Source: an uncultured Gemmatimonadota bacterium
GTDB taxonomy: Bacteria > Gemmatimonadota > Gemmatimonadetes > Palauibacterales > Palauibacteraceae
DNA: 45,533 nucleotides
NCBI GenBank assembly: GCA_964392705.1
Contig: CAYMQZ010000004.1
Location: 1-45,533, forward strand
Reading direction: 5' to 3'
The notes beneath the pieces are model-generated. The model had not been told where the DNA came from and did not search any database. It saw only the letters and a program-made list of their open reading frames with translations. Of this stretch, positions 5,468-39,730 are shown piece after piece; within the stretch, counting starts at the first letter, position 1; every line of letters begins with the position of its first letter. Position numbers and translations under genes: made by a program.

Positions 5468-5476
5468 GGGGTCGTC

Positions 5477-13072: not shown

Positions 13073-13243
13073 GGCCGTCGCGGTGCGGCCCTCGGTTCGC
13101 GGGCCCGCCCCCCGGCCGCCTTAACTTCGCCAGTCCGAAGCACCTTCGTTGCAGCGTCCTGTCTTGACTCGGAATCGGGCGTCTCTCCAATTGGTATGAA
13201 GATTGCCCGAGGATAGGGGCATCCTCGAGAGGCGGAGCGAAGC

Positions 13244-14521: not shown

Positions 14522-14626
14522 GAAGCTCACCCGGGGGGGCGGCGCGGCCGCCGCCCGCGGAGAAGGCCGCGCGTCCGCGGCCGGCATGTCGCTCCGCGGC
14601 CGCCCTCGTCGCAAGGAAGGGAAGGA

Positions 14627-14944
14627 ATGCAGATGACCATGACCGTGCCCGAGCTCTTCCTGGACTGGGGCTTCTGGTACCTGGTCGGGACCGCCGTGGT
14701 GCTGATCGCGGCAGCGCTCCTGATCACGATCCTGCTCGTGGCGCGCTCCATCGCGGGGCACGCCGAGCGCGCCCTCGCGGCCGGTGCCCGGATCGAGGAG
14801 AACACGCGCGCCATCTGGGCCCTGCAGGACGCCCTGGAAGGGATGCGGACGATTCACGAGCGCGCCGGCGCGGTGGAGGAGAAGGCCGCGTTCCTGGCGG
14901 ACGCGGTCCACGGCGAGGGCGCGGCGCCGCGGACCGAGGCATGA
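14627..14944 (+). CDS. Small single-pass membrane protein 1 of 5 between the hydrogenase subunit genes
   Basis: 105 aa. Purine-rich SD (GGAAGGGAAGGA) upstream. One hydrophobic helix (FWYLVGTAVVLIAAALLITILLV) followed by an Ala/Glu/Arg-rich helical tail that contains RIEENTRAI. Confidence 0.7.
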   Translation: MQMTMTVPELFLDWGFWYLVGTAVVLIAAALLITILLVARSIAGHAERALAAGARIEENTRAIWALQDALEGMRTIHERAGAVEEKAAFLADAVHGEGAAPRTEA

Positions 14945-14966
14945 CCGCCGGAAGCGGGAGGCACGC

Positions 14967-15278
14967 GTGGAAGCCGTGAACGCGCCGATGTGGTGGATCA
15001 CGCTCGGCGTGGGGCTGGTGATCGTGCTCGTCGTGGCCCTGCTCCTTCAGCTCATCGTGAACACGGCCCGCCGGATCCGCGGGACCCTGGAAGCGATCTG
15101 GGTGGCGGGCCCGATGATCGCGAACAACACCGCTCACGTCGACCTCGTGCGGCGGATCAACCTGGTGGCTGGCCACATCCTGGAGGTGGCCGGCCGGATC
15201 GTCGGCCACACCGAGCGCATCCAGGAGCATGCGGACGGCTGCGCCGGGTGTCCCCACTGCGTGGTCGGATGGTCCTGA
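14967..15278 (+). CDS. Small single-pass membrane protein 2 of 5; C-terminal CxxCxxC
   Basis: About 103 aa from GTG 14967, preceded by GGGAGG 6 nt upstream (alternative starts GTG 14976, ATG 14988). Helix MWWITLGVGLVIVLVVALLLQLIV, a tail containing MIANNTAHV, and a C-terminus HADGCAGCPHCVVGWS. Confidence 0.65.
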   Translation: MEAVNAPMWWITLGVGLVIVLVVALLLQLIVNTARRIRGTLEAIWVAGPMIANNTAHVDLVRRINLVAGHILEVAGRIVGHTERIQEHADGCAGCPHCVVGWS

Positions 15279-15356
15279 TGCGACGCCCCATCCGGCACCG
15301 GAGGTCCTGATGCGAGGCGCAGCGCCGAATCGGAGACGCGGGAAGGAAGCCTGGCC

Positions 15357-15650
15357 ATGCTGTTGCTGACGGTCCTCACGATCGGCCTGGTCCTCCTGCT
15401 CGTGGGCGCGCTCGTCGTCTACCTGCTCAAGATCATCGCCGAGCTGGAGGCGATCGGAGGCGCGCCGACCAGCCTCCTGGCCCACGTGCGCTGGGGGGTG
15501 CGCGCGATCGAGGTGCAGACCCGGCCGATCGAGCCGGGCGTGGGCAGCCTGAACGCGGGTCTCGGCCAGATCGGCGAGGGACTGGCGGCGGTGCAGGCGA
15601 ACCTGCGGGGCCTGGCCCAGGCCCTGCGTAGACAGGGGTCCCGCTCATGA
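15357..15650 (+). CDS. Small single-pass membrane protein 3 of 5
   Basis: 97 aa. SD-like GGGAAGGAAG upstream. Helix LLLTVLTIGLVLLLVGALVVYLL and a helical tail containing AIEVQTRPI. Confidence 0.7.
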   Translation: MLLLTVLTIGLVLLLVGALVVYLLKIIAELEAIGGAPTSLLAHVRWGVRAIEVQTRPIEPGVGSLNAGLGQIGEGLAAVQANLRGLAQALRRQGSRS

Positions 15651-15955
15651 TCCAGGTGACGCTCCAGGCCCCGACCGCCGTGCTCGCGCTCTGGTGGGTC
15701 GCCCTCGGCCTGACGCTGCTCCTGATCGTGCCCGTCGCTCTCTACCTGCTGCACCGCACCTGGCGGGCGGCCCGGAACATCCAGCGCTACACGGCGGAGG
15801 CCCTGCGCGCCGGGGCGGGCATCGCGGCGCACACCGCGCAGCTCACGGCGCTGGACGACACGATCGCCGGGGCCGGCCCGCTGCTCGAGCGGACGGAGGC
15901 GATCCAGGGGCTCACGGCGGAGGTGAAAGAGATCCTCCTCGGGCGGGTGGGATAG
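15647..15955 (+). CDS. Small single-pass membrane protein 4 of 5
   Basis: 102 aa. ATGA overlap with the previous ORF. Helix VLALWWVALGLTLLLIVPVALYLL and a tail containing GIAAHTAQL. Confidence 0.7.
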   Translation: MIQVTLQAPTAVLALWWVALGLTLLLIVPVALYLLHRTWRAARNIQRYTAEALRAGAGIAAHTAQLTALDDTIAGAGPLLERTEAIQGLTAEVKEILLGRVG

Positions 15956-15963
15956 GAGACGGC

Positions 15964-16227
15964 ATGCTGCTCTACTGGCTCACGCTGGGCGTCGTGCTCG
16001 CGATCATCCTGGCCCTGGCGGGCTACCTGATCGCCATCGCCTGGGCGTTGGCGCGGGCGCGCGCCAACGTGGCCAGGCTGGCCGACGGCCTGGAGGCGAT
16101 CGCCGGCCACACCGATCCACTGGAAGAGAAGCTGGGGACGATCGGGAGCGCCGTCGGGCGCGTGGCCGACGGTTTCGGCGAGGTGGACCGCCACCTCGGC
16201 GAAGTGGCCTCGGCGCTGGGCGGATAG
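15964..16227 (+). CDS. Small single-pass membrane protein 5 of 5
   Basis: 87 aa from ATG 15964, with GGAGA 5 nt upstream. Helix LLYWLTLGVVLAIILALAGYLIAIAWAL and a tail containing AIAGHTDPL. Confidence 0.7.
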   Translation: MLLYWLTLGVVLAIILALAGYLIAIAWALARARANVARLADGLEAIAGHTDPLEEKLGTIGSAVGRVADGFGEVDRHLGEVASALGG

Positions 16228-16241
16228 AGGGGGAACGGATC

Positions 16242-18131
16242 ATGTGCTTCAAGAACCTGCCGATCGAGTTCGACGAGGCCGGAAGGGCCACGCTCAAGGA
16301 GGCGATCCCCGACCCGTACGCCCAGCGGGAGGTGCGGACGAAGGCGCCGCCGCAGCTGGACCGGGGGCAGATCGAGGAGCTCCTCGCCCGGAACGGCTAC
16401 CTGAAGAACGTGGACTTCGACCCGGTGACCCGGGTGGCGGGCGCGCTCGCCTTCCATTCGGTCTGCGACCTCGAGGAGCGGAAGGTGCTCGAGGCGCGCT
16501 CGATGGCCACGCTGTTCCGGGGCTACGAGATCATCGCCATGGGACGCGACCCCCGGGACGCGATCTTCATCACCAGCCGCGCCTGCGGCGTGTGCGGGGG
16601 CGTGCATTCGGTGACCTCGGCCATGGCCACGGAGATGGCGTTCGGCATCTGCCCGCCGCCATTGGGGATCGTCATCCGCAACCTGGCGCTGGCGCTCGAG
16701 TTCCTGTACGACCACCCGCTCCACCTCTTCCTGCTCGCCGGTCCGGACTACTCGGAGCAGATCGTCCGGCAGACGAACCCCGAGTACCTGGACGTCGCGA
16801 AGACGTGGGAGTGCCCGCACGCCGACCTCCACGGCTTCGCCACGATGCACGAGCTGATGGAGGAGATGAACCCGCTCACGGGGAACCTCTACCTCGAGGC
16901 GCTCCATATGACCCGGGTCGTCCGGGAGGCGTACGTGCTCATCTGCGGCAAGTACCCCCACCCGCAGACGATCGTCCCCGGCGGCATGAGCTCGACCGTG
17001 GACTTCACGGTCATGAACGAGATCTACCAGCGGGTGCAGCGCTTCTTCGACTACGGGAAGAAGGCGGTCGGCATCTGGGAGGACCTCACCGCCTTCTTCT
17101 ACGAGCGCGACCCCCGTTACCGCGAGGTCGGGTCCCGCTCACCCACCATGGTCGACACGGGCATCTTCGACCATCCCGAGGCGTACGACGCCAGGTACGA
17201 GAACGCGGGCGAATGGGGGAAGCGGCGCTGGGAGACCCCGGGCGCGATCGTCGACGGGGAGCTGGTGACGACGGACCTCCACCAGATCAACATGGGGACC
17301 GAAGAGTTCGTCGAGCATTCCTACTACGAAGAGTGGGCCTCGCACCGCCACCCGGAGGACCCGGTCGGGAACCCGCTCAGCAGGTTCCACCCCTGGAACG
17401 AGGAGACCCGCCCCAAGCCCGAGGGCCAGAGCTGGAAGGAGAAGTACTCCTGGGCGAAGTCGCCGCGTTGGGACCGCCGGGCCGCGGAGGCCGGCTGCTA
17501 TGCGAGGCTGTGGAACTCCGCCGCCGCCCGGCAGATGCCCGAGTCGGACTACATGATCCCGACCGGCCGCTCCCTGCGCTTCATCGTGCCGCGCGGGAAG
17601 CTGCCCGAGACGGAGCTCGAATGGGAGATTCCCGAGGACTGGAACGCGTTCGAGCGCAACCTCGGGCGCGCGTACTGCATCCCCTACATGGCCCTGGTGG
17701 CGCAGGAGAACTGGGAGATCGGGATGGAGCTCATGAAGCGGGGAGAGCGGAAGGTCTCGACCCCGTTCGAGGTGCCCAGGAAGGGCCACCGGATCGGCGT
17801 CGGCTTCTGGGGCGCCGGTCGGGGCTGGCTCACGCACCACCTGGAGCTGGAGAACGGCGTGATCTCCAGCTACCAGATCCTCACGCCGTCGACCTGGAAC
17901 GCCTCGCCCCAGGACCCGTGGGGGAACCCCGGCCCCTACGAGGAGGCCGTCCTCAACACGCCGCTGCTGGAGAGCTTCGACGACCCGGATCGCTTCCGCG
18001 GCGTGGACATCCTGCGGACGATACGCAGCTTCGACCCCTGCATGCCGTGCACGACCCATACGCACGTCGAAGGAGCCGACCGCGTCCTGTCGACCGAGGT
18101 GAACACCTGCGCCTGCGGCGTCGAAGAGTAG
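16242..18131 (+). CDS. [NiFe]-hydrogenase large subunit
   Basis: 629 aa. N-terminal Ni-Fe ligand pair in TSRACGVCGGVHS and C-terminal pair in RSFDPCMPCTTHTH, followed by a ~22-aa C-terminal extension (the expected endopeptidase substrate). SD GAGGGGGAA upstream. Confidence 0.95.
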   Translation: MCFKNLPIEFDEAGRATLKEAIPDPYAQREVRTKAPPQLDRGQIEELLARNGYLKNVDFDPVTRVAGALAFHSVCDLEERKVLEARSMATLFRGYEIIAMGRDPRDAIFITSRACGVCGGVHSVTSAMATEMAFGICPPPLGIVIRNLALALEFLYDHPLHLFLLAGPDYSEQIVRQTNPEYLDVAKTWECPHADLHGFATMHELMEEMNPLTGNLYLEALHMTRVVREAYVLICGKYPHPQTIVPGGMSSTVDFTVMNEIYQRVQRFFDYGKKAVGIWEDLTAFFYERDPRYREVGSRSPTMVDTGIFDHPEAYDARYENAGEWGKRRWETPGAIVDGELVTTDLHQINMGTEEFVEHSYYEEWASHRHPEDPVGNPLSRFHPWNEETRPKPEGQSWKEKYSWAKSPRWDRRAAEAGCYARLWNSAAARQMPESDYMIPTGRSLRFIVPRGKLPETELEWEIPEDWNAFERNLGRAYCIPYMALVAQENWEIGMELMKRGERKVSTPFEVPRKGHRIGVGFWGAGRGWLTHHLELENGVISSYQILTPSTWNASPQDPWGNPGPYEEAVLNTPLLESFDDPDRFRGVDILRTIRSFDPCMPCTTHTHVEGADRVLSTEVNTCACGVEE

Positions 18132-18137
18132 GCTCGC

Positions 18138-18893
18138 ATGACCCAGGGCTCCGAGCCGCCCGAAGGGGACTCCACGGCCTCCGGCGACGAGCTGCGCGCC
18201 GCGGCCTCCGGCGACGAGCTGCGCGCCGCGGCCTCCACGCTGGTCGGGGGCGTGGGATATCACGATCTCCGGGACTTCTCGGTCGGGCCCCTGCTGGTCG
18301 AGCGGCTGCGGGCGGAGAGCTGGCCGGACGGCGTCGTGGTCGAGGACCTGAGCTACGACCCCGTGAAGGTCGTCCACCGCCTCGCCGGCCAGGATCCGCC
18401 CTTCCGTCGCCTGGTCGTGGTCTCGTCGGTGCGCCGCGGGCGGCGCGCCGGCACCGTGACCGCCTACCGCTGGGACCGCTCCCTGCCGAACCCCGCGGAG
18501 ATTCAGGACCGGGTCTCGGAGGCCGTGACCGGCGTGATCGGGCTCGACAACCTGCTGATCGTGCTCCGGGCGTTCGGAGAGGCTCCTCCCGAAGTCTACG
18601 TGGTCGAGATCGAGCCGGCCGTGGAGGCGATGGGCGAGGCGCTGAGCCCGCCGGTGGCGGAGGCGGCGGCGGAGGCCGCCCGCCTCGCGCGTCGGCTCGC
18701 CCTGCACGTGGGATCCGAGCCGGCCGTCCCGACGTCGGCCCTCGGGGCCGGAGGCACCATGAACGGGCACGGAGCGGGGCCGCGGGTCACGCCCTTCGAT
18801 CCCCTCTCGCTCGAAGCCGGGACAGGCGACCGTCGGCGCGGGAGCGATCGGGCCGGTAGGGGCGATGCGCCATCGACGGGAGGGGGTTCGTGA
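18138..18893 (+). CDS. Hydrogenase-endopeptidase-like protein with apparently substituted metal ligands and a low-complexity tail
   Basis: The core LVGGVGYHDLRDFSVGPLLVERL...RLVVVSSVRRG...VIGLDNLLIVLRAFG...VYVVEIEP resembles the HybD/HyaD fold. The DA box reads SS and no His is visible at the third ligand position (by-eye alignment). The N-terminus contains a duplicated SGDELRAAA. Confidence 0.5.
   Translation: MTQGSEPPEGDSTASGDELRAAASGDELRAAASTLVGGVGYHDLRDFSVGPLLVERLRAESWPDGVVVEDLSYDPVKVVHRLAGQDPPFRRLVVVSSVRRGRRAGTVTAYRWDRSLPNPAEIQDRVSEAVTGVIGLDNLLIVLRAFGEAPPEVYVVEIEPAVEAMGEALSPPVAEAAAEAARLARRLALHVGSEPAVPTSALGAGGTMNGHGAGPRVTPFDPLSLEAGTGDRRRGSDRAGRGDAPSTGGGS
18177..18230. repeat. Perfect 27-bp tandem duplication (2 copies plus 6 nt of a third)
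   Basis: GCCTCCGGCGACGAGCTGCGCGCCGCG occurs at 18177-18203 and again at 18204-18230, followed by GCCTCC. It is in frame and encodes ASGDELRAA twice. Confidence 0.95.
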
Positions 18894-19918
18894 AGCGCGA
18901 GGAGATCGACGCGCTGTCGGAGCGTCTGAACGGCCTGCTGGCCGAGCTGGAGGCGGGCGCCCCGCCCGAGGTTCTCGAGGCCGTCGTGGAGCTGGTGGAG
19001 GGGATCCAGCGCGTGCACGCGGAGGGCCTCCGGCGGGTGGCCGAGCTGCTCGCCGAGGACCGCGAGCGCTTCGGCCGGGCGCTCGACGACCCCGTGGTCT
19101 CGAACCTCTTCCTGCTCTACGACCTGGCGCTGGTCGATGAGCGGGGGCGGGCCGAGGCCGCCCTCGAGGCCGTGCGCCCGCTGGCCCGCTCCCACGGCGG
19201 CGAGATCGAGCTCGTGGACGTGGACGAGGGCGTCGTGACGGTCCGACTCCACGGCGCCTGCCACGGCTGCCCCTCCTCCACCGCGACGCTCCGGGGCGGG
19301 ATCGAGCGGGTCCTGGTCGAGAGGCTCCCGGGCTTCGTGCGCCTCGAGGTGGCCGGAGAGGACGGCTCGACCGACGCCCCGACCGGCTCCATCCGTCCAG
19401 TCGACGCCCCGGCGGACGCGGGATCCCCGGCCGGAGATGTCGGGAACCCGGTGGGGCCCGGAGCGCTCGAGGCCGGCGGACCGGGTTCCGCGACGGGTGA
19501 CCTGTCCGTCGTGCCGCGGGAGAATCTGGTCCGGCTGGAGAAGCGGCTCTCGGAGGGCCGTCGCCGGGCTTCGAGGTCGGGTACGGGCTCGGAGCCGGAC
19601 GGCGGGTCCGGGCCCCGGCGGGTCGACGTGACGGCCCTCGACGACCTTCCTGGACAGGACCTGTTCGGCACGCTGGTCGGGAACTTTCCCCTCCTCCTGG
19701 TGCCCCTGGGCGACGGCGTGGCCGCCTACCGGAACGTCTGTCCGGGCTCCGCGCTTCCCCTCCATCTGGGCGAGCTGGAGAGCGGGGCTGTCGTCTGTCC
19801 CTGGCACGGTTGCCGGTTCGACGGCCGGACGGGCGAGCGGCGGGAGGGAGCCGGTCCGCCGCTCGAGGCGCTGTCCGCCTCGATCGAGGCGGGCCGGGTG
19901 AAGGTCGACCTCCCGTGA
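18890..19918 (+). CDS. NifU-like domain / Rieske-like domain fusion protein (HhyE/HucE-like putative FeS protein)
   Basis: The central segment HGGEIELVDVDEGVVTVRLHGACHGCPSSTATLRGGIERVL is a NifU C-terminal-type CxxC domain. The C-terminus AAYRNVCPGSALPLHLGELESGAVVCPWHGCRFDGRTGE is Rieske-like. The GTG start overlaps the upstream stop. Confidence 0.7.
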   Translation: MKREEIDALSERLNGLLAELEAGAPPEVLEAVVELVEGIQRVHAEGLRRVAELLAEDRERFGRALDDPVVSNLFLLYDLALVDERGRAEAALEAVRPLARSHGGEIELVDVDEGVVTVRLHGACHGCPSSTATLRGGIERVLVERLPGFVRLEVAGEDGSTDAPTGSIRPVDAPADAGSPAGDVGNPVGPGALEAGGPGSATGDLSVVPRENLVRLEKRLSEGRRRASRSGTGSEPDGGSGPRRVDVTALDDLPGQDLFGTLVGNFPLLLVPLGDGVAAYRNVCPGSALPLHLGELESGAVVCPWHGCRFDGRTGERREGAGPPLEALSASIEAGRVKVDLP

Positions 19919-20433
19919 TCGCGTCCCGCCGCGTCCTGGTCGCCTGCATGGGCAACGTGCTCCGGAGCGACGACGGCTTCGGAGTGGCGGTGGCGAGGGA
20001 GCTGGCGGAGCGAACGCTCCCGCCCGAGGTGACGCTTATCGAGGTGGGCACAGGGGGGATCCACCTCGTGCAGGAGCTGCTCGACGGTTACGATGCGCTG
20101 GTGATCGTGGACGCGGTCGATCGCGAGGCGGAGCCGGGCGCGGTGTTCCTGCTGAAGCCCCGCGTACCGGACCTCGACCCCATGCCGGAGGAGGAGCGGA
20201 GCGCGCTGCTGGCCGACATGCACTACACCGTGCCTTCGCGGGCCCTGATCGTCGCCAAGGCGCTGGGAACGCTGCCCCCGCGGACCTGGATCCTGGGGTG
20301 CCAGCCGCTCGAGGGCCAAGCGCTGGGGCTCGAGCTGTCCGATGTGGTGCGGAAGGCCGTGCCCGTGGCCGTGGCCCGGCTCGAGCGGCTCTGGGGCGAG
20401 CTCGGCCTGACCGAGACCGTGGGACGCCCGTGA
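19915..20433 (+). CDS. [NiFe]-hydrogenase maturation endopeptidase (HyaD/HybD/HupD family)
   Basis: VLVACMGNVLRSDDGFGVAVA, ALVIVDAVD and LLADMHYTVP supply the three conserved acidic/acidic/His metal-ligand boxes. The GTG start overlaps the upstream TGA. Confidence 0.85.
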   Translation: MIASRRVLVACMGNVLRSDDGFGVAVARELAERTLPPEVTLIEVGTGGIHLVQELLDGYDALVIVDAVDREAEPGAVFLLKPRVPDLDPMPEEERSALLADMHYTVPSRALIVAKALGTLPPRTWILGCQPLEGQALGLELSDVVRKAVPVAVARLERLWGELGLTETVGRP

Positions 20434-20879
20434 GCGAGCGCGACGGGGAGACGCCCGTGAGCCAGCCCGAGGATCGGCGAGCGGCCGGTGGCGTCGAGCC
20501 TGGCGGGGACGGCGGCGCGGGGGCGGTCGAGAGGCTCCGGCGGCGCGACGAGATGCTCCAGGTGCTCTTCTGGCTCGAGGGGGAGGGGTTCTCCTCCGAC
20601 ATGACGGCGAGGGGGATCCGGCGTTTCCTGAACTGGCCCCCCGAGAGGATCGCCGCCGGGCTGCAGGACCTCGTGCGGTCGGGCTTCGCGGTGGCCGACG
20701 AGGAGGAGGGCCGCTATCGGCTCACGCGCCAGGGGCGCCACGAGGGCGGACGCCGCTTCCTGGAGGAGTTCGCGCCGATCCTTTCGAGAGACACGCATCA
20801 CGGGAGCGAGTGCCAGGACCCCGACTGCGAGTGCCACACCTCGCCCTTGGGGGCGGCGGCCTGCCGGGCGAACGCATGA
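20430..20879 (+). CDS. Hypothetical winged-helix-like protein with a C-terminal Cys/His cluster
   Basis: GTG 20430 overlaps the upstream stop (alternative ATG 20553). LQVLFWLEGEGF...IAAGLQDLVRSGFAVADEEEGRYRLTRQG looks like a winged helix. The C-terminus is THHGSECQDPDCECHTSP. Its stop overlaps the ATG of the CooC-like gene. Confidence 0.55.
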   Translation: MSERDGETPVSQPEDRRAAGGVEPGGDGGAGAVERLRRRDEMLQVLFWLEGEGFSSDMTARGIRRFLNWPPERIAAGLQDLVRSGFAVADEEEGRYRLTRQGRHEGGRRFLEEFAPILSRDTHHGSECQDPDCECHTSPLGAAACRANA

Positions 20880-21655
20880 AGATCGCTATCGGAGGCAAGG
20901 GAGGCACGGGAAAGACGACCGTGGCCGGCACCCTGGCCCGGGCCCTGGGCCAGGCCGGTCGCGACGTGATCGCCTTCGACGGCGACTCCAACCCGAACCT
21001 CGCGGCGATCGTCGGCTTCCCTCCCGAGGGGACATCGGAGATTTCCGAGCTTCCGCGTGACCTGTTCGAGATCGTGGAGGAGAACGGCGAGCGGCGCCGC
21101 GTGCTCACCATGCCGCCGTCCAAAGTGGTGGACCGCTTCGGGACGGTCGGACCGGACGGGGTCCGCCTGCTGGTGGGGGGGCGCGTCGGCCATGCGGGCG
21201 CGGGGTGAATGTGCCGAGCCCACGCCACGGTCCGTGGCCTCATCGGCGAGTTGGTCGGAGCGGAGCTCGAGGGACGTGACGTCGTCCTCGACATGGAGGC
21301 GGGGCTCGAGCACATGAGCCGCGGCACGCCGCGGCACGTGGACACCCTGCTCGCCGTCGTCGAGCCGTACTTCCGGTCGCTCGAGGCGGGACGGCGGGTC
21401 GTGGAGCTGGCCCGCGAGCTGGACGTTCCCGCCGTCTACGCCGTGGCGAACAAGGTGCGGAGGGACGACGACGCGGCCGCGATCCGGGAGTTCTGCGACC
21501 GCCACGAGCTGCCGATCCTGGTCTCGATCCCCTTCGACGAGTCGATGATCGACGCGGAGCGCGAAGGCCAGGCCCCGATCGACCACGACCCGGCCTCGCC
21601 GGCCGTCTCCGAGATCCGCAGGCTGGCCGGGGCGCTCGTGGCGGACGGGGGATAA
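20876..21655 (+). CDS. CooC-type (MinD/Mrp-class) Ni-insertion ATPase interrupted by an in-frame TGA at 21206-21208 (candidate Sec codon, or pseudogene/split gene)
   Basis: P-loop MKIAIGGKGGTGKTT. Track ORFs 20810-21208 and 21209-21655 are in the same frame and are separated only by the TGA. The joined sequence GRVGHAGAG-[TGA]-MCRAHATVRGLIGEL...VVLDMEAGLEHMSRGT...LLAVVEP aligns with CooC GTVNHAGSG-C-VCPEHALVRTLL...DMEAGIEHFGRGT. Confidence 0.7.
21218..21247 (+). promoter_or_regulatory. SECIS-like stem-loop downstream of the in-frame UGA
   Basis: The apical stem GCCACG (21224-21229) pairs with CGTGGC (21233-21238) around loop GUC (or a 5-bp stem with loop GGUCC). The lower stem GCC (21218-21220) pairs with GGC (21245-21247) across an internal loop. 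The apical stem begins 15 nt after the UGA. Confidence 0.35.
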
Positions 21656-21683
21656 GCGACTCGAGGACCCCGCCCTCCCCGGC

Positions 21684-23486
21684 TCACGGCCCGCTCCCGT
21701 CGTCCTCTGTGGCCGGGTGCGGGGAGGGGATGGCCGAGAGGAGCGCCACCGTGTAGGGATGGGCCGGGTGGGAGAACACCCGTTGCGCTTCCCCGACCTC
21801 CACCAGCCGTCCCAGGTACATCACGGCGACGCGGTGAGCCACCGAGCGGACGACCGCGAGGTCGTGGGCGATGAGCAGCATGGAGATCCCCAGCTCGGCC
21901 TGTAGGTCCCGAAGCAGTCCCAGGACCCGGGCGCGCACCGCCGCATCCAGGGCGGTCACCGGCTCATCGAGCACCAGGACCTCGGGGTCGAGGGCCAGGG
22001 CCCGCGCGATGCCCACACGCTGGCGCTGTCCGCCCGACAGCTGGTGCGGATACCGGCCGGCCAACTCGGGCTCCAGCCGCACGAGCTCCAGGAGCCGACG
22101 CACGCGGGCCTCGCCGCCGGCCGCCCGGAAGCGGCCGTGCGCCCGGAGCGGCGCGGCCACGGTCTCGGCCACGGTGCGGCGCGGGTTGAGCGAGGCGAGC
22201 GGGTCCTGGAAGACCATCTGGATGCGGGCGCGCAGCCGGCGCAGCCGGCGCCGATCCGCCGAGAGGAGGTCCTCGCCGTCCAGGTACACGTGGCCCGCGA
22301 CGGGGCGGTCGAGGGCGAGCAGCGCGCGAGCCAGGGTCGATTTCCCGCAGCCCGATTCCCCGACCAGGCCCATCGTCTCGCCGCGGCGGAGCTCGAAGCT
22401 CACCCCGTCCACCGCGCGGACCGTGGCGCTCCGCGCCCGGGGGCCGTCGCCGCGGTGCTCGACGATCAGGTCCACGACGCGAAGGACCGGCTCCGTGGCG
22501 GCGCCGTCCGTCCCAGGCGCCCGATGCGGGCCGGTCGGCGGGTTCAGGGCGGCCGGCGCGCTCGGGCCGCTCGGCGGGCTCGCCGTGATCCGGGACCCCC
22601 CCTCCGCCCCCGGCTTCGGGCGCGCGGTCCCGTTCGACGGCCCCAGGAGATCCGCGGCCGCGAGCAGCTCGCGCGTCTTCTCCCGCTCCGGATTCGCGAA
22701 CAGCTCCCGGATGGGACGGAACTCGATCACGCGTCCCCCGTCCATGACCGCGACGCGCTCCGCCAGCTGGGCGACGACGGCCAGGTCGTGGGAGATCAGG
22801 AGCGCGGCCGCCCCGGTGTCCCGCAGCGCCTCCCGCAGCAGCTCGAGGATCTGGGCCTGGACGGTCACGTCGAGCGCCGTCGTCGGCTCGTCCGCGATCA
22901 GGAGGCGAGGGCCGTTCGCGATCGCCATGGCCACGACCGCCCGCTGTCTCATGCCCCCGGACCACTGATGGGGGAACGGATGGCGTTCGGCGTGCGCCGC
23001 GGAAATCCCGACTCGTTCCAGGAGTCCGAGCGAGCGTCGGCGGGCCTCCCGCCTCGAGAGGTCCGTGTGCGCCCGCAGGGCCTCCGCGACCTGATCCACG
23101 ACGCGATACCAGGGGTGGAGCGAGGACAGCGGATCCTGGAAGATCATCCCGATCTCGCGTCCCCGGAGCCCTCGCACTCGACGCTCGGGGAGTGAGAGCA
23201 CGTCACGGCCGCGCCAACCGATCCGGCCCCCGATCGCGTGCCGGGCCGGGAGGAGCCGGAGGATCGAGAGGGCCGTGAGCGTCTTCCCGCTTCCCGATTC
23301 GCCGATGAGGCCCACGGTCTCCCCGGCGCGGATCTCCAGGTCGACGCCGCGCAGGGGTCGAGCCCACCCTTCCCGGGTCTCGAGCTCGACGCACAGGTCG
23401 GTCACCCTCAAAAGCTCGCCGCCCCCCGGCGGCTCGCCGCCCGCGAGCCCCGATCCTCGATCGGCCGTCCGCTTTCGTTCGGCCAT
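21684..23486 (-). CDS. Fused double ATP-binding protein of a peptide/nickel-type (Dpp/Opp/Nik) ABC importer
   Basis: 600 aa from ATG at 23486. Two ABC cassettes (GESGSGKT...SGGMRQR...LLIADEPTTALD and GESGCGKST...LSGGQRQR...VLVLDEPVTALD) joined by a Pro/Ala/Gly linker. The longer track ORF (to 24194) overlaps the permease and was rejected. Confidence 0.9.
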   Translation of the reverse strand: MAERKRTADRGSGLAGGEPPGGGELLRVTDLCVELETREGWARPLRGVDLEIRAGETVGLIGESGSGKTLTALSILRLLPARHAIGGRIGWRGRDVLSLPERRVRGLRGREIGMIFQDPLSSLHPWYRVVDQVAEALRAHTDLSRREARRRSLGLLERVGISAAHAERHPFPHQWSGGMRQRAVVAMAIANGPRLLIADEPTTALDVTVQAQILELLREALRDTGAAALLISHDLAVVAQLAERVAVMDGGRVIEFRPIRELFANPEREKTRELLAAADLLGPSNGTARPKPGAEGGSRITASPPSGPSAPAALNPPTGPHRAPGTDGAATEPVLRVVDLIVEHRGDGPRARSATVRAVDGVSFELRRGETMGLVGESGCGKSTLARALLALDRPVAGHVYLDGEDLLSADRRRLRRLRARIQMVFQDPLASLNPRRTVAETVAAPLRAHGRFRAAGGEARVRRLLELVRLEPELAGRYPHQLSGGQRQRVGIARALALDPEVLVLDEPVTALDAAVRARVLGLLRDLQAELGISMLLIAHDLAVVRSVAHRVAVMYLGRLVEVGEAQRVFSHPAHPYTVALLSAIPSPHPATEDDGSGP

Positions 23487-24328
23487 CACCGTCCCCTCCC
23501 CGCGGCGGTCAGCGCGTCCCCCAGCAGGTTGAATCCCAGCACCGCGACCACGATGGCCAGGCCCGGGAAGACCGCCAGCCACCAGGCCGTGCGGAGGAAG
23601 GGCTGCGCCTGGGCCGCCAGGTAGCCCCAGCTCAGTGCGCTCGGATCCGTCACTCCCAGGAAGCCCAGGCCGGCCTCGATCAGGAGCACGCGGCCGAGGA
23701 TGAGCCCGAGCAGGGCCACGGCGGCCGGCAGCGCGTTCGGCAGGATCTCCGTCCACAGGATCCGACCGGGCGAGGCCCCGCCGGCTCGCGCCGCGAGGAC
23801 GAACTCCCGCTCGCGGAGCGTCATCACCTCCGCCCGCACCACCCGCGCCAGCAGCGTCCACGAGGTCAGGCCCAGCACCAGGATCAGCGTCGCCAGCCCG
23901 GGTCCGAGGAGGGCGATCGCCAGAATCGCGAGGAAGAAGCGAGGGACGACCTGCACGACCTCCGTGGCGCGCATGAGCAGGTCGTCCGTCCAGCCGCCCG
24001 CGAAGCCCGAGACGGCCCCGATCGCGCAGCCGAGGAGCAGCGCGAGGCCGCCCACGGCGACGGTCACCAGGAGCGAGGTCCGAGCGCCATACAGGATCCC
24101 GCTCAGCAGATCCCGCCCCAGGGGGTCGGTGCCCAGCGGGTGCCCGGGACCGGGCGGCGCCAGAGCCGGGCCGGCGATCTCGAACGGGTTCCACGGCGCC
24201 ACGGCCGGCCCCAGGAGCCCGAGGAGCACGAAGCCCGCGAGGATGGCCGCCCCCACGAGCCCACCTGGACGCCGGAGCGCCGGGGCCCCGACGCCCGCGA
24301 CCGCGGCCGCCAGGCGGGCCTCAGCCAT
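23486..24328 (-). CDS. ABC peptide/nickel permease (DppC/NikC-like)
   Basis: 280 aa with multiple TM helices. N-terminal PLGTDPLGRDLLSGILYGARTSL and the EAA-loop region FVLAARAGGASPGRILWTEILPNALP. Confidence 0.9.
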   Translation of the reverse strand: MAEARLAAAVAGVGAPALRRPGGLVGAAILAGFVLLGLLGPAVAPWNPFEIAGPALAPPGPGHPLGTDPLGRDLLSGILYGARTSLLVTVAVGGLALLLGCAIGAVSGFAGGWTDDLLMRATEVVQVVPRFFLAILAIALLGPGLATLILVLGLTSWTLLARVVRAEVMTLREREFVLAARAGGASPGRILWTEILPNALPAAVALLGLILGRVLLIEAGLGFLGVTDPSALSWGYLAAQAQPFLRTAWWLAVFPGLAIVVAVLGFNLLGDALTAAGRGR

Positions 24329-25286
24329 AGCGCACCCGGGGGTCGAGCCGGGCGTAGGCGAGGTCGGCGAGCAGGTTCCCCAGGAGCACGCCGAAGGCGA
24401 CCAGGGTGAAGATCCCGAGCAGGACCGGGCTGTCCCGGGTCTGGACGGCGTCCACCAGCAGACGGCCGATCCCCGGCCAGCCGAAGACGATCTCCACGAG
24501 CACGGCCCCCGAGACCAGGAAGCCCAACCGCGACCCGAGCACGGTGACGACCGGCAGCAGGGCCCGCGGCAGCGCGTGCACCAGGGTCACGCGCCACGGG
24601 GGGAGCCCCTTGGCCCGGGCGGTCCGTACGTGGTCCGACGCCATCTCGTCGATCAGGGCCTCCCGGGTGAGCCGGGCGATCGCCGCGAGCTGCTGGGAGG
24701 CGAGCACGAGGGCGGGAAGCGCCAGGTGGCGGGCCACGTCGAGCCACCGCTCCGGGCCCGTCGCCTCGGAGCCCGGCGTCACCATCCCCTGGATCGGGAA
24801 GACCCCCAGGCCGAAGGCCAGGCCCAGGATGGCGAGCTGCCCCAGCCAGAAGACCGGGGAGGCGTACAGGGTCAGGGCGCCCACCGAGACGACCGCGTCC
24901 GGCCAGCGGCGGTGTCGGGTCCCCGCGGCCACGCCGGCCAGGAGGCCCAGGACCGTGGACAGGACGAGGGATGTGGCGGCCAACAGGAGCGTGGGCGGGA
25001 GCCGCTCGGCGATCACGGCCATGGCGGGGCGCCCATGGATGTAGGAGAGGCCGAAGTCTCCCCGCACGAGTCGGCCGAAGTACGTCGCGAGCCGCTCGGG
25101 AAGCGGTCGGTCCAGGCCGAACCGCTCGCGCATGAAGGCGAAGTACGCCGCGTCGCCGTGTTCCCCGGCCAGCGCGAGGACGGGGTCGCCCGGCGCGAGA
25201 TGGATCAAGAGGAAGCCGATCAGGACGATCGCGGCGGCCGTGAGGAGAGCCTGGACCGCCCGCCGGACCAGATAGCGGCCGCTCAT
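24321..25286 (-). CDS. ABC peptide/nickel permease (DppB/NikB-like)
   Basis: 321 aa from ATG at 25286 (MSGRYLVRRAVQALLT...). Typical HLAPGDP and DHVRTARAKGLPPWRVTLVHALPRALLPV motifs. Confidence 0.9.
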   Translation of the reverse strand: MSGRYLVRRAVQALLTAAAIVLIGFLLIHLAPGDPVLALAGEHGDAAYFAFMRERFGLDRPLPERLATYFGRLVRGDFGLSYIHGRPAMAVIAERLPPTLLLAATSLVLSTVLGLLAGVAAGTRHRRWPDAVVSVGALTLYASPVFWLGQLAILGLAFGLGVFPIQGMVTPGSEATGPERWLDVARHLALPALVLASQQLAAIARLTREALIDEMASDHVRTARAKGLPPWRVTLVHALPRALLPVVTVLGSRLGFLVSGAVLVEIVFGWPGIGRLLVDAVQTRDSPVLLGIFTLVAFGVLLGNLLADLAYARLDPRVRYG

Positions 25287-25296
25287 GCTCCACCGC

Positions 25297-26928
25297 TCAC
25301 GGTCCGCAGGAAGCGGCCTCCGCGAAGTGGCCGTACAGGGCGAAGCCGGAGCACTCCGGCCTGTAGGCCCGGGTGGTTTCCGTCTCCACCAGCCAGAAGT
25401 ACGGGAGGTCCCGCACCAGGATCTCCTGGATCCGCCGGTAGATCGCCCCCCGCTCGTCACGATCGAGAGTCCGCCGGCCGGCGTCGAACAGCGAGTCCAC
25501 GATGGGGTTCCGGTAGGCCGACGAGTTGGAGAAGGGCACGGGCGCGATGTTGGAGGAGACGTACATCCGCCGCACCCCGATCTCGGGATCCGTCATGTTG
25601 CAGTAGGAGACGACGTTCGTGTCGAACTCCCGCCGCCGGAACACCTCCTCGACGAACAGGGGAGGCTCGAGCGCCCGCGGCTCCAGCGCGATCCCGACCC
25701 GGCGCAGCTGGGCCCTGAGAAGCTCGCCGTAGGCCGTGAAGGCGGGAAAGTGGTGAAAGCCGAAACGCAGCGGCGACCCGTCGGGCACTCCCTCCACGCC
25801 ACGGGCGACGCGGATCCCGGGGGCGCGAGGCCGATCCCCGCCGGCCTCGTCGGGCGACCTCCATCCCGCCCGCTCGAGCAGGAGGCGCGCCCGGGCGGGG
25901 TCGTGGTCGGGCATCGGGAGGTCCTCGGCGTGAGCGAAGGGGATCCCGCTCGAGATCGGGGCCTCCGCCACCCGCCCCTCGCCGAACAGGATCCGCTCGA
26001 CGAACTGCCCGCGGTCGATCGCATGCGCTACGGCGCGCCGAAGCCCCGGGTCACGAAAAAAAGGCCTGTCCAGGTTGAAGCTGAGCGTCATGACGCAGTT
26101 CGACCCGCCGGAGCCGAGGCCGCTCGAGACGAGGGGGAACCCCCGCTGTCGGAGCCGCTCCTGATCCGGGCCCCGCACGCCGTTCAGGAAGTCCACCTCC
26201 CCCGCCTCGAGGGCCAGGGCCTGGTTGCCGGCGTCCGGGATGATCGGCATGACCAGCCGCCGGGCGCGGGGGAGGCCCGGCTTGTGGTAGCGGGGGTGGG
26301 CGGCGTACCGAAGCTCCACGTCCGGGACGTGGGCCTCGAAGCGGAAGGGGCCCGTCCCCACGGGCTCCCGGTTGGCCGGGTTGGTGAGGGGGTCGCTCCC
26401 CTCGAAGAGGTGGCGCGGCAGGATCGCGGCCTCGTGCACGTTCAGTTGCTGGAGGAACGGCGCGTACGGCTCGCGGAACCGGAAGACGACCTCGTGCGGC
26501 CCCGGCGTCTCGATCGAGCCGAGCACGGTGCCCAGCGAGGCGCGGGCCCGGGCGTGGTACTTCAGCAGCACCTCCTCGAAGGTGAACTGCACGTCCGCCG
26601 AGGTGAACGGCCGGCCGTCGTGCCACCGTACGTCCTCCCGCAGCCGGAAACGGTACGTGGCGCCGCCGTCCTCCACCGTCCAGGACTCGGCCAGGTCGGG
26701 CACCGGATCCAGCTCGGCGGTCAGCTCCACGAGCCCGCTGTACAGGCTGCGCGAGGCCGTGTGGACGCCACCCTGGGTCGTGATCACCGGGTTCAGGTGC
26801 TCGGGGCTGTCCGAGAGGGGCACGACGAGCGTGCCGCGTCGCGTCCCCTCGTAGGCCGCCTGGTCGCATCCCGCGGCGAGGAGAAGCGCTCCCAGCGGCA
26901 GGGCCAGCGGCCGGATCCGTGCGGTCAT
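25297..26928 (-). CDS. Family-5 solute-binding lipoprotein (DppA/OppA/NikA-like)
   Basis: 543 aa from ATG at 26928. Lipoprotein signal MTARIRPLALPLGALLLAAGC. Family-5 features include LAESWTVEDGGATYRFRLREDVRWHDGRPFTSADV. Confidence 0.88.
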   Translation of the reverse strand: MTARIRPLALPLGALLLAAGCDQAAYEGTRRGTLVVPLSDSPEHLNPVITTQGGVHTASRSLYSGLVELTAELDPVPDLAESWTVEDGGATYRFRLREDVRWHDGRPFTSADVQFTFEEVLLKYHARARASLGTVLGSIETPGPHEVVFRFREPYAPFLQQLNVHEAAILPRHLFEGSDPLTNPANREPVGTGPFRFEAHVPDVELRYAAHPRYHKPGLPRARRLVMPIIPDAGNQALALEAGEVDFLNGVRGPDQERLRQRGFPLVSSGLGSGGSNCVMTLSFNLDRPFFRDPGLRRAVAHAIDRGQFVERILFGEGRVAEAPISSGIPFAHAEDLPMPDHDPARARLLLERAGWRSPDEAGGDRPRAPGIRVARGVEGVPDGSPLRFGFHHFPAFTAYGELLRAQLRRVGIALEPRALEPPLFVEEVFRRREFDTNVVSYCNMTDPEIGVRRMYVSSNIAPVPFSNSSAYRNPIVDSLFDAGRRTLDRDERGAIYRRIQEILVRDLPYFWLVETETTRAYRPECSGFALYGHFAEAASCGP

Positions 26929-27236
26929 GCGAGCCAAGGTAAGGATGCGCGGTCGGGACGCGCACGGCCCGACCCCCGGGCGCTTCCCGCGGCGGCACGC
27001 GTGCGGTCGGACGGCCCGCCGTGCGGCGACTCCATGGAGGGCGAGCCTTGACACGCCCCGTCCCGGTTCGAAGCTTTCGGCGTTGGAGGGCATCTCGTTC
27101 GACGAGTCGCCCGGGATGTAGACCAGCCGAGAGCGCGTCCCGGATCGCTCCAGAGACGGCCGGCTTCTTGCTCCGTGGAACGGTCGCCGGGACGAGATTC
27201 AGCCCCCTCGATTCCGATTGCCGGGAAGGTGTGACC

Positions 27237-27515
27237 ATGTGCTTGGCGATCCCGGGGCGGGTGGTGGAATATACGGACGAGGCGCACCGGCTCGCGTCCG
27301 TTGACGTGGCGGGCGTCCGGCGCGTGGTGAACGTCGGGCTCCTGGACGACGAGGACGGTGGGGTGCGACCGGGCGACTGGGTGCTCATCCACGTCGGCTT
27401 CGCCATGTCCCGCGTCGACGAGGAGGAAGCGCGGGCCACCCTCGAGCTGCTGGAGCGGATGGGCTCCGAGTTCGACGCCGAGCTCGAAGAGTTCATCGCG
27501 AGCGAGATCCAATGA
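27237..27515 (+). CDS. hypC: Hydrogenase maturation chaperone HypC
   Basis: Canonical N-terminus MCLAIPGRVV and GDWVLIHVGFAMSRVDEEEA. 92 aa. Confidence 0.92.
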   Translation: MCLAIPGRVVEYTDEAHRLASVDVAGVRRVVNVGLLDDEDGGVRPGDWVLIHVGFAMSRVDEEEARATLELLERMGSEFDAELEEFIASEIQ

Positions 27516-27763
27516 CGTCCCGCTCGCCCGCCTGTCATCCCTCGAGCGGCTGCGTCACCTGCTCGGACGAGGGGGTTCCGATGCGCGTGCTCGAGGCCGA
27601 TCCGGCCCGGTCCCTCGCCACTTGCGCCGACGAGGCCGGTGTGCGGTCGGAGGTGATGACGGACCTGGTGGGATCCGTGTCGCCGGGGGATCGTCTGCTC
27701 GTGCACGCCGGGACGGCGCTTCTCGCCCTGGACCCGGAGACCGTGGTCGGAGGGAACCCGTGA
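27512..27763 (+). CDS. Atypical HypC/HupF-family protein (no Cys2; internal CVTCSDE)
   Basis: 83 aa with an ATGA overlap with hypC. CVTCSDEGVPMRVLE...GDRLLVHAGTALLAL resembles the HypC OB-fold core but lacks the N-terminal MC. Confidence 0.55.
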   Translation: MTSRSPACHPSSGCVTCSDEGVPMRVLEADPARSLATCADEAGVRSEVMTDLVGSVSPGDRLLVHAGTALLALDPETVVGGNP

Positions 27764-28875
27764 AGTTCGTCGACGAGTTCCGCGACCCCGAGCTGGGCCG
27801 CGTGCTCTCCGAGAAGATCGCGGCCACGGTCGAGCCGGGGCGCCACTACAAGATCATGGAGGTGTGCGGCGGGCACACGCACACCATCTACCGCTATGGC
27901 GTGGATGACCTGCTGCCGGGGAACGTGGAGCTGGTCCACGGGCCGGGCTGTCCCGTGTGCGTTATCCCGATGGGCCGGGTGGACGACGGGATCGCCGTCG
28001 CCAGGCGTCCCGAGGTCATCTTCACCTGCTTCGGGGACATGATGCGCGTGCCCGGCGGCGAGGGTACGCTGCTCGAGGCGAAGGCGGAGGGGGCCGACGT
28101 GCGGATGGTCTACTCGCCGCTCGACGCGCTCCGGATCGCGCGGGACAACCCGGACCGCGAGGTGGTCTTCTTCGCCGTGGGCTTCGAGACGACCGCGCCC
28201 TCCACGGCGCTCACGCTGATGCGCGCGAAGGCGGAGGGGATCGGCAACTTCTTCTGCTTCTCCAACCACGTGACGATCGTCCCGCCGCTGCGCGCGCTCC
28301 TCGAGTCCCCCGACCTGCGGCTGGACGGCTTCATCGGGCCCGGTCATGTCTCCACCGTGATCGGCGCCCGCCCCTACGAGTTCATCCCGGCCGACTACGG
28401 GAAGCCGATCGTGGTCTCGGGCTTCGAGCCGCTGGACGTGCTCCAGTCGGTCCACATGGTGCTCGCCCAGCTCACGGAAGGCCGCTGCGAGGTGGAGAAC
28501 CAGTACCGGCGGGTCGTCCCTTACGACGGGAATCCCCAGGCCCTGAGGGCGCTGGCCGAGGTCTTCGAGCTCCGTCCCCACTTCGAGTGGCGGGGGCTGG
28601 GCTTCATCTCCCAGAGCGGGCTCAAGGTGTCGGAGACGTACGCCGACTTCGACGCCGAGCTGCGCTACCAGGTGCCGGGGGTCCGGGTGGCCGATCCGAA
28701 GGCCTGCCAGTGCGGCGAGGTGCTGAAGGGCGTGATCAAGCCGTGGGAGTGCAAGGTGTTCGGGACGGCCTGCACGCCGGAGCGGCCGATCGGCACCTGC
28801 ATGGTCTCCAGCGAGGGAGCCTGCGCCGCCTACTACAACTTCGGGCGGTTCGCCCGTGAGCGGGAGGTCGTGTGA
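27760..28875 (+). CDS. hypD: Hydrogenase maturation protein HypD
   Basis: KFVDEFRD, MEVCGGHTH, HGPGCPVCV, FAVGFETTAP, GPGHVS and the C-terminal CxxxxxxC region. The GTG start overlaps the upstream TGA. Confidence 0.95.
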   Translation: MKFVDEFRDPELGRVLSEKIAATVEPGRHYKIMEVCGGHTHTIYRYGVDDLLPGNVELVHGPGCPVCVIPMGRVDDGIAVARRPEVIFTCFGDMMRVPGGEGTLLEAKAEGADVRMVYSPLDALRIARDNPDREVVFFAVGFETTAPSTALTLMRAKAEGIGNFFCFSNHVTIVPPLRALLESPDLRLDGFIGPGHVSTVIGARPYEFIPADYGKPIVVSGFEPLDVLQSVHMVLAQLTEGRCEVENQYRRVVPYDGNPQALRALAEVFELRPHFEWRGLGFISQSGLKVSETYADFDAELRYQVPGVRVADPKACQCGEVLKGVIKPWECKVFGTACTPERPIGTCMVSSEGACAAYYNFGRFAREREVV

Positions 28876-33401: not shown

Positions 33402-33689
33402 GGTCGGTCTTCCTTCGCCTGCGGGTCCGCCTCCTCGGGGAGCCCGACGACGTCATCCACGGCCGAAGAGGTCACGGGAAAAGCTATGCCCGAGCAGGTG
33501 TGGTAGCCAGCGCGAGGGCCGCTCGCCACGCTCTCGCTCGCGCGCGTCCGGGAACCTTGACTTCCAGGGCGCGGTCGCCACTATTCGTCTCGGGCCTTCG
33601 CCGGCGCCCGCGGCCCGCTTCGACGTTCGCGCTCCATCGCCCTCGGGAGCGAAGGACGCGCCCGCACCGACCCGAAAAGAGGAGGCTCC

Positions 33690-39729: not shown

Positions 39730-39730
39730 G

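Follow-up and report, generated by a model that had tools for sequence, protein, structure and literature searches.

The DNA analysed here, referred to below as the window, comprises positions 1 to 45,533 of contig CAYMQZ010000004.1 (assembly GCA_964392705.1) from an uncultured bacterium of the phylum Gemmatimonadota, and it carries on its forward strand, at 20876-21655, a gene for a CooC-like ATPase of the MinD/SIMIBI class whose 259 codons include an in-frame TGA. This triplet (21206-21208, codon 111) is the proposed selenocysteine (Sec) codon with which the present analysis is concerned. In public annotation the gene lies in fragments, labelled 'hypothetical protein' by NCBI and 'CO dehydrogenase maturation factor' by JGI. 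It was brought to attention by an earlier reading of the DNA (the original prediction), according to which two open reading frames (ORFs), 20810-21208 and 21209-21655, share one frame and are split by nothing other than this TGA; coordinates and frame were re-checked and are as described.

Joined, the two frames encode a complete P-loop ATPase of the CbiA/MinD type (Pfam PF01656), for which the closest solved structure is CooC1 of C. hydrogenoformans (3kje, E=5e-30 over residues 1-233). The complete CooC/MinD-class ATPase that had been predicted is upheld by these matches, with the correction that its start is not the GTG at 20810. The ATG at 20876 (MKIAIGGKGGTGKTT..., MKIAIGGKGG...) is almost certainly the true start, because homologues begin at this codon and because it overlaps the upstream stop codon as ATGA. 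A deviant Walker A motif (P-loop), GKGGTGKT, is encoded at 20894-20917 (forward strand) and is nearly invariant in the homologue alignment. NCBIfam (release 20) holds no family-specific model for the protein and none of its models reaches cut-off, and scans with Pfam and NCBIfam gave no match to the HypB/CobW family.

The position of the TGA within the protein is well defined. In the alignment to CooC1 it falls on the first Cys of the sequence GSQCYC, and in the full-length homologues that were aligned a Cys stands at this position without exception (23/23; consensus HAGxGCMCxAHA), so that the placement on the first Cys of a CxC motif, originally argued from the CooC sequence of R. rubrum, is now documented by alignment to CooC1 and to these homologues. 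The second residue of this putative metal-binding U-x-C motif, which reads U-M-C in the window, is Cys113 (TGC, 21212-21214, forward strand), and its column is invariant among the homologues. In a six-frame scan of the whole window (G+C content 69-75%) for coding-type composition around stops, the TGA at 21206 was the only in-frame stop with a coding signal on both sides, one ordinary gene boundary that also came up being set aside. Many genes of the window end in TGA as their normal stop, and the codon is therefore not a reassigned one.

Conservation of the UGA and of the RNA that follows it

When the species-representative genomes of GTDB were searched for the motif H-A-G-x-G-TGA-x-C-x-A-H, at least 119 loci matched, and translation of the matches left at least 85 loci, in as many species-level genomes, as true orthologues with TGA at exactly codon 111 of the CooC-like gene. 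These carriers are spread over about eight phyla. Among the matches listed they belong to Rubrobacteraceae, Rubrobacter, Limnocylindria, Chloroflexia, Anaerolineales, Pyrinomonadaceae, Vicinamibacteria, Thermoanaerobaculia, Bryobacterales, Gemmatimonadota, Planctomycetota (Gemmatales and Pirellulaceae), Myxococcota, Kofleriaceae, 'Deltaproteobacteria', Verrucomicrobia, Fervidibacter and Entotheonella. The TGA form is also found on multi-megabase contigs, such as CBDCNI010000001.1 (Rubrobacteraceae, 3.39 Mb) and CAWCGQ010000001.1 (2.6 Mb), and the same TGA occurs in a Logan contig from another sample (L001), which has 84.5% nucleotide identity to the window. Between the window and this contig the ratio of nonsynonymous to synonymous substitution rates (dN/dS) is 0.106 in the 80 codons upstream of the TGA and 0.123 in the 148 codons downstream, and both halves of the gene are therefore under purifying selection. 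The longest run of identical nucleotides between the two sequences, at 48, covers 21203-21250; the runner-up has 23.

In the Rubrobacteraceae the TGA is the rule. When a sequence from this family was compared with a database of 5.8 billion proteins, the matches included about 75 clusters of C-terminal fragments of 146-150 amino acids with 87-95% identity, and no intact Cys form above 57% identity to the query was present in that database. Since the close relatives in this diverse clade are all C-terminal fragments, the TGA is fixed throughout it. These observations bear directly on the alternative that the gene is a pseudogene created by a TGC-to-TGA nonsense mutation, or that base 21208 was wrongly read as A in sequencing or assembly. 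A single base change does turn TGC into TGA, and public gene callers do cut the gene into two ORFs. Against this, the same triplet in at least 85 species-level genomes, produced by many assemblers and including multi-megabase contigs, its recurrence in the Logan contig, a dN/dS of about 0.11 on both sides and the fixation across Rubrobacteraceae make such an explanation hardly credible.

Cys-containing relatives were collected by scanning metagenome contigs with TGY in place of TGA and the same flanks, a collection that differs from the one that gave the Sec set. Genuine orthologues made up about 31 of the 120 TGY matches in these contigs, as compared with at least 85 of at least 119 TGA matches in the GTDB genomes; this suggests that, for the exact motif, Sec forms are at any rate no rarity beside Cys forms, the ratio being no estimate of frequency as the collections differ. 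In two loci (P0008 and P0047) a Cys-form orthologue takes the place that the Sec form has in the same hydrogenase cluster, and by this identical synteny the Sec and Cys forms are orthologous. A rough neighbour-joining tree of 54 Sec and 91 Cys forms requires at least 12 switches between the two, and groups the window gene with two Gemmatimonadota sequences; the orthologues nearest to it are L037 and L065. One metagenome-assembled genome (MAG), JACCSM01 (Rubrobacteraceae MGR_bin48), has the gene twice with TGA, on different contigs (L024 and L042), and these copies could be paralogues or reflect strain heterogeneity.

Immediately 3' of the UGA, at 21213-21247 on the forward strand, lies a proposed bacterial selenocysteine insertion sequence (SECIS) element with a lower stem (21213-21217/21243-21247), an upper stem (21224-21229/21233-21238) and the apical loop GUC (21230-21232). 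Its hairpin, GCCACG-GUC-CGUGGC at 21224-21238, occupies nucleotides 19-33 counted from the U of the UGA, which leaves 21 nucleotides between UGA and apical loop. The whole element falls within the 48-nucleotide stretch that is free of substitutions relative to L001. The published model of bacterial SECIS elements (PMC13188914) has a loop of 3-9 nucleotides with a G in its first two positions, an upper stem of 4-16 bp, 16-37 nucleotides from UGA to loop and a minimum free energy of -7.5 kcal/mol or lower. With its GUC loop, 6-bp upper stem, 21-nucleotide spacing and -17.6 to -18.7 kcal/mol as a two-stem structure, the window hairpin lies inside all of these limits.

Whether such an element has been maintained by selection was judged by comparing orthologues. 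Synonymous change, expressed as the fraction of identical-residue codons that differ, was counted in 33 non-overlapping pairs of TGA-form orthologues (mean identity 0.85) and in 10 Cys-form pairs of equal mean identity. In codons numbered relative to the TGA, the Sec pairs differ at 0.395 in -30 to -11, 0.329 in -10 to -1, 0.150 in +1 to +10, 0.112 in +6 to +10 and 0.244 in +11 to +16, so that 0.37 over the 30 codons before the TGA compares with 0.15 over the ten codons after it (Fisher p=1e-13). In the Cys pairs the value for codons +1 to +10 is 0.359, with no dip (p=0.52), and the two kinds of pair differ from each other over these codons (p=4e-5). A second test took the longest contiguous stem closing a loop of 3-8 nucleotides within nucleotides 19-29 from the U of the UGA. 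Its mean length is 6.28 bp in 76 TGA forms as against 4.02 bp in their own synonymous-codon shuffles, and 3.62 bp in 26 Cys forms as against 3.84 bp when shuffled (Mann-Whitney p=3e-11).

Covariation was assessed in an ungapped alignment of 78 distinct TGA forms, with 500 shuffles, for the helix formed by columns 17-23 and 29-35. The cells of this helix are paired in 74.4% of cases (shuffled mean 66.6%), 68 of them have changed on both sides (shuffled mean 26.9) and the covariation score is 0.261 (shuffled mean 0.131). None of the 500 shuffles reached any of these three values, and controls in which the helix was slid pair 20-55% of cells. At pair 21-31, for example, 31 sequences have CG and 23 have UA, and at pair 22-30 the counts are 26 for AU, 21 for GC and 4 each for CG and UA. 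The register that ranks second, slid by -2, corresponds to sequences of the Vicinamibacteria type (AUGCCGC-GGU-GCGGCAU), and a third is seen in Rubrobacteraceae (GCGCAC-loop-GUGCGC). Where Cys forms have the same A-S-V-R-G residues, their choice of codons disrupts the helix, for instance GCG UCC GUG CGU GGC where TGA forms have GCC UCC GUG CGA GGC. The RNA just 3' of the UGA is under selection as an element that is specific to TGA forms, and it is the comparison of orthologues, not the energy of the hairpin, that raises this element above chance. The alignment of orthologues that had been proposed as a check on the original prediction has in this way come out in its favour, with TGA retained in the loci counted above, Cys in others and a hairpin that covaries in the TGA forms.

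The same data speak to the idea of a genuinely split gene, in which translation would end at the TGA and begin again at the neighbouring ATG, so that the ATPase would be put together from two separate chains and have a single-Cys site. An ATG does follow the TGA directly in the window, and both halves are conserved. That ATG, however, is the conserved Met of the G-C-M-C motif, and among the matches listed only some orthologues have ATG at the codon after the TGA, most having no start codon at the junction; CTG, CTC, CTA, CTT, AAC, GCG/GCT and AAG are found there instead. As so many orthologues have no start codon next to the TGA, a restart there is excluded. The stop, moreover, always falls exactly on the metal-ligand codon, and both the suppression of synonymous change and the covarying hairpin lie downstream of it, in the place of a SECIS element, rather than upstream, in the place of a ribosome-binding site. 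Taken as a whole, the split gene is very improbable.

The hydrogenase cluster around the gene

The CooC-like gene lies among genes for a [NiFe]-hydrogenase and its maturation, and it does so well beyond the window. When the window proteins were compared by tblastn with the orthologous loci (at least 85, each of 8 kb or less), homologues were found among the loci listed for the small subunit HhyS in 42, the large subunit HhyL in 37, the HycI-like protease in 35, the ORF directly upstream of the ATPase gene in 33, a NifU-Rieske protein in 26, the transporter binding protein in 20, hypCD in 10 and hypE in 10. Some 50 loci have hhyS, hhyL, hyp genes and proteases as neighbours. This linkage to the hydrogenase spans phyla, and Sec and Cys forms share it alike.

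In the window itself the large-subunit gene (16296-18131, forward strand, as are all genes of the cluster unless stated otherwise) encodes a protein ending in DPCMPCTTH, with Cys and not Sec in this motif. Its best match in the PDB is 5aa5, HofG of the Ralstonia 'actinobacterial-type' hydrogenase (E=1e-144), and it is of group 1h type because this match is far stronger than those to other groups (about 1e-55). The gene for the HhyS-like small subunit is at 13241-14521 and is separated from the large-subunit gene by three or four small ORFs (14522-15955) that apparently encode membrane or coiled-coil proteins; for two of these (15279-15650 and 15632-15955) homologues occur in 13-14 loci, and L242 and L243 also have small genes of this kind. 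Upstream is the ORF 10415-13072, assigned as hypF from the acylphosphatase, zinc-finger and YrdC/Kae1-type motifs in its translation, with homologues in six of the loci listed. Downstream of the large subunit, two paralogous hydrogenase maturation endopeptidases, one at 18132-18893 (matching a superfamily model only, and kept in 24 loci listed) and the HycI-like one at about 19810-20433 (kept in 35), flank the gene for the NifU-Rieske protein (18890-19918).

The ORF that precedes and overlaps the ATPase gene (about 20430-20879) encodes a conserved protein whose N-terminal part resembles a winged helix and whose C-terminal part has an invariant His/Cys motif (HHGSECQDPDCECH...C), which reads HHGSECQDPDCECHTSPLGAAAC in the window and follows the family pattern H...C-x-[DE]-P-x-C-x-C-[HQ]...C. 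It has no match in Pfam or NCBIfam. Homologues adjoin Sec and Cys forms of the ATPase gene in 51 loci (for example L242:8625-8999 and L243:8593-9000), and its product is a candidate metal-binding partner of the CooC-like ATPase. On the other side of the gene, on the reverse strand at 21684-27198, is an ATP-binding cassette (ABC) transporter of the Opp/Nik type with a fused double ATPase, permease(s) and a substrate-binding protein that best matches NikA, its score against the nikA model TIGR02294 (134.6 bits) being below cut-off. The cluster is completed by hypC (27237-27515), hypD (ending at 28875) and hypE (28872-30098; TIGR02124, 386.6 bits). The last of these, an AIRS-domain gene, was considered as a possible selD and rejected on the strength of its hypE assignment.

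The window thus holds a group 1h hydrogenase with much of its maturation apparatus, and neither a HypB signature (of the NVGNLVC type) nor a further non-ABC P-loop protein was found elsewhere in it; a motif search of the hydrogenase cluster (10415-30098) gave no HypA-like ORF. Since this is a hydrogenase cluster without hypB in the window, the most likely role of the CooC-like protein is that of the nucleoside triphosphatase (NTPase) that delivers nickel to the hydrogenase. As judged from sequence and gene context we put this specific assignment, nickel insertion, at somewhat better than even. No CO-dehydrogenase gene (of the cooS/acsA/acsB type) was present among the scanned ORFs of the window, and it is for want of such an association that we call the protein CooC-like and not CooC. 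The term 'CooC-type ATPase' used in the original prediction accordingly holds for the ATPase class, the Walker A motif and the CxC, and the cluster concerned is one for maturation of a group 1h [NiFe]-hydrogenase, not of CO dehydrogenase.

A real selenoprotein with another job would be compatible with part of this evidence. The protein might be a CooC for CO dehydrogenase, an ATPase for Fe-S or other cofactors, or a regulator of the neighbouring transporter: its closest solved relative, CooC1, is a CO-dehydrogenase factor, JGI gives the corresponding label to relatives, MinD-class ATPases vary in role, and the genome might carry hypA and hypB at another locus. What speaks against these roles is that no cooS/acsB-type gene is among the scanned ORFs, that synteny with hhy and hyp genes extends across phyla in both Sec and Cys forms, that the CxC metal site is conserved and that the gene is adjoined by a NikA-like transporter and a His/Cys-rich partner. 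We regard a different job as unlikely, at perhaps the level of a minor but real chance.

Further along the window two other gene groups were seen. Downstream of the hydrogenase region are a tandem-rhodanese sulfurtransferase (33561-34520, forward strand), which has no in-frame TGA and no homologue in the orthologous loci examined, and a HepT-like toxin RNase (34575-35060, reverse strand). At 38578-41290 (forward strand) are genes for an EgtD-type histidine-specific methyltransferase (PF10017, E=1.6e-110) and, next after it, a pyridoxal phosphate-dependent decarboxylase; these two, which may belong to a betaine or thiohistidine-type pathway, are unrelated to the TGA gene.

Probable recoding of the UGA and a possible nickel-delivery route

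Taking these lines together, we consider it likely that the UGA is read as selenocysteine in an ATPase dedicated to the hydrogenase cluster, the two being put forward as a joint claim. The candidate selenoprotein of the original prediction has gained support from the conservation of the UGA, from Cys orthologues in the same synteny, from purifying selection and from an RNA element specific to the UGA forms. With regard to the decoding machinery, one orthologous locus, from a MAG of the Gemmatales (L094), has a selA gene (3114-4547, forward strand) about 750 nucleotides from the TGA gene (5217-5981, reverse strand). The selA product has 44% identity to E. coli SelA and scores 564 bits with TIGR00474 (cut-off 268), and among the orthologous loci examined no other gene for Sec machinery was found in direct physical linkage. 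Selenoproteins have been described in Rubrobacter xylanophilus, Acidobacteria and Chloroflexi (Zhang et al. 2006, PMC1794560); the Sec trait therefore exists in Rubrobacter, Acidobacteria and Chloroflexi as groups, the particular carrier genomes not being covered by that statement.

It is conceivable that the UGA is recoded to a residue other than Sec, either to Cys, dependent on SECIS and SelB, through a selC* system of the tRNA(ReC) type or to Trp, Cys or Arg by near-cognate read-through. Mention is made of tRNA(ReC) systems in PMC13582414, and our data speak for an RNA element and for read-through, not for the identity of the inserted residue. Insertion of Cys, on the other hand, would bring no gain over TGC, yet TGA has been kept in many lineages beside Cys-containing relatives, with at least 12 switches; a canonical selA, whose product makes Sec-tRNA, adjoins the gene in the Gemmatales locus, and TGA is a normal stop in the window. 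The chance that recoding yields another residue is accordingly a slight one.

Several points weigh against selenocysteine insertion in a hydrogenase maturation ATPase. None of selA, selB, selC and selD was seen in the window, selD having had no search of its own, and tRNA-Sec is absent both from the window, in which no tRNA genes were found, and from the 60 orthologous loci scanned; comparison of E. coli SelB with the orthologous loci gave only a weak GTPase match. The 60 nucleotides from the TGA onwards fold to -18.7 kcal/mol, a value that is not low in relation to dinucleotide shuffles (z=+1.05), and the 57 nucleotides after the UGA have a mean z of -0.16 in 79 TGA forms and -0.19 in 26 Cys forms relative to synonymous-codon shuffles. 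In DNA of 72% G+C the stability of the hairpin alone is not above chance, and as neither kind of shuffle gave a signal it was dropped as evidence. The SECIS-like stem-loop originally placed 15 nucleotides downstream of the UGA is therefore there, complete with lower stem, compliant with the published model and covarying, but its energy says nothing in its favour. Rfam returned no family at gathering thresholds over the window and nothing meaningful at E-values up to 10 on 21100-21350. The p-values of the hairpin in individual sequences are modest (median 0.125), and its register varies by clade (i+j = 52, 50 or 43), which amounts to at least three registers, so that no single SECIS covariance model fits all TGA forms. 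The synonymous, stem-length and covariation statistics ignore kinship among the sequences, and the Cys control is small (26-29 sequences, of which 5 have Val-Arg at the same codons). The role in nickel handling and hydrogenase maturation, finally, is drawn from synteny and homology, and hypA and hypB could lie in another part of the genome.

If selenocysteine is nevertheless inserted, as we think likely, the following sequence of events can be envisaged. The hairpin at 21213-21247, with its loop GUC 22-24 nucleotides after the UGA, would act as a bacterial SECIS and recruit SelB-GTP-Sec-tRNA(Sec), so that selenocysteine is placed at codon 111 in lieu of termination and one selenoprotein of 259 residues results. 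By analogy with CooC1, binding of ATP would lead to dimerisation of the ATPase, and one metal ion, most likely Ni(II), would be held at the dimer interface by Sec111 and Cys113 of each subunit. The nickel would then be delivered to the large subunit of the group 1h (high-affinity, O2-insensitive) hydrogenase, the role that HypB has elsewhere, with the His/Cys-rich upstream protein perhaps assisting and the adjacent Nik-like importer supplying the metal. Selenium as a nickel ligand may allow tighter or faster handling of nickel, or may confer resistance to oxidative inactivation in air.

A broader proposal, to which we give about even chances, is that a widespread and hitherto unrecognised selenoprotein family makes the maturation of group 1h hydrogenases selenium-dependent, with Sec serving as a nickel ligand in a metallochaperone that, together with its partner, forms a route independent of HypA and HypB. 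Hydrogenases of group 1h are held responsible for the microbial uptake of atmospheric H2. Were the proposal correct, the availability of selenium would be tied to this class of enzyme and a trace element linked to a global trace-gas sink, in lineages that are dominant soil groups (Rubrobacteraceae, Pyrinomonadaceae, Vicinamibacteria, Limnocylindria, Gemmatimonadota and others). It would also add a large family, with at least 85 species in about eight phyla, to the bacterial selenoproteome, and would place Sec in the metal-binding site of a metallochaperone, as a ligand of nickel rather than as a redox catalyst. The ATPase, its His/Cys-rich partner and the Nik-like importer would constitute a possible nickel-delivery module that may not need HypB. 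The frequent switching between Sec and Cys in identical gene context offers a natural experiment on what Sec contributes, and because the annotation is split, the gene is miscounted when the gene content for hydrogenase maturation is surveyed in soil metagenomes.

Relation to known ATPases and selenoproteins

A 2026 catalogue of prokaryotic selenoproteins does not list the CooC-like family, the nearest item in it being a CobW-related (G3E) selenoprotein, and a 2022 review has no entry for such a protein either. In the open-access literature, most subscription journals being outside its scope, no Sec-containing CooC or hydrogenase-maturation ATPase was found. Within that literature the CooC-like Sec ATPase is an undescribed selenoprotein family of a familiar kind, and its relation to better-known systems can be set out as follows.

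The closest comparison is with CooC1 of C. hydrogenoformans (3kje, 3kjg, 3kjh and 3kji), which acts in maturation of the Ni-containing C-cluster of CO dehydrogenase. The two proteins are similar over their full length and share the deviant Walker A motif GKGG-x-GKT, the switch region DxEAG-x-EH and a C-x-C at the same alignment position. In CooC1 this motif binds the metal at the ATP-dependent dimer interface. They differ in that the first ligand of the CooC-like protein is encoded by UGA, for Sec by our proposal, instead of a Cys codon, in that its gene is linked to a group 1h hydrogenase and hyp genes rather than to cooS/acs, and in that it is paired with a conserved small protein rich in His and Cys.

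With regard to function, two kinds of HypB invite comparison. Canonical HypB, a G3E GTPase that works with HypA, is likewise encoded among [NiFe]-hydrogenase and hyp genes, and the CooC-like ATPase is proposed to resemble it in using nucleoside triphosphate to drive the delivery of nickel to the large subunit ahead of its C-terminal cleavage. The two differ in fold class, and there is no match to the G3E/HypB family, so that the location among hyp genes supports a protein that works like HypB and not one that belongs to the HypB family. The Mrp/MinD-type HypB of Thermococcus kodakarensis (3vx3 and 5aun-5auq) is, as here, a MinD-class ATPase and not a G3E GTPase, and it works in the insertion of nickel into [NiFe]-hydrogenase. 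It provides the functional precedent for an NTPase of the MinD class, other than HypB proper, in hydrogenase maturation. Its similarity to the CooC-like protein is weak (3vx3, E=8e-6, C-terminal half only), CooC1 being far closer in sequence, and the Thermococcus protein is archaeal; we know of no Sec form of it.

As a selenoprotein, finally, the CooC-like ATPase resembles known bacterial examples in that Sec would replace a Cys of the metal-ligand or CxxC type, in that the proposed SECIS lies within the ORF and in that Cys homologues coexist with the Sec form. Soil lineages with group 1h hydrogenases are largely aerobic, and most carriers of the TGA form are expected to be aerobes. A 2026 review finds bacterial selenoproteins mainly in anaerobic pathways. 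What sets the present protein apart from these selenoproteins is its membership of a MinD-class family, its U-x-C motif and its occurrence mainly in soil lineages that have a group 1h hydrogenase.

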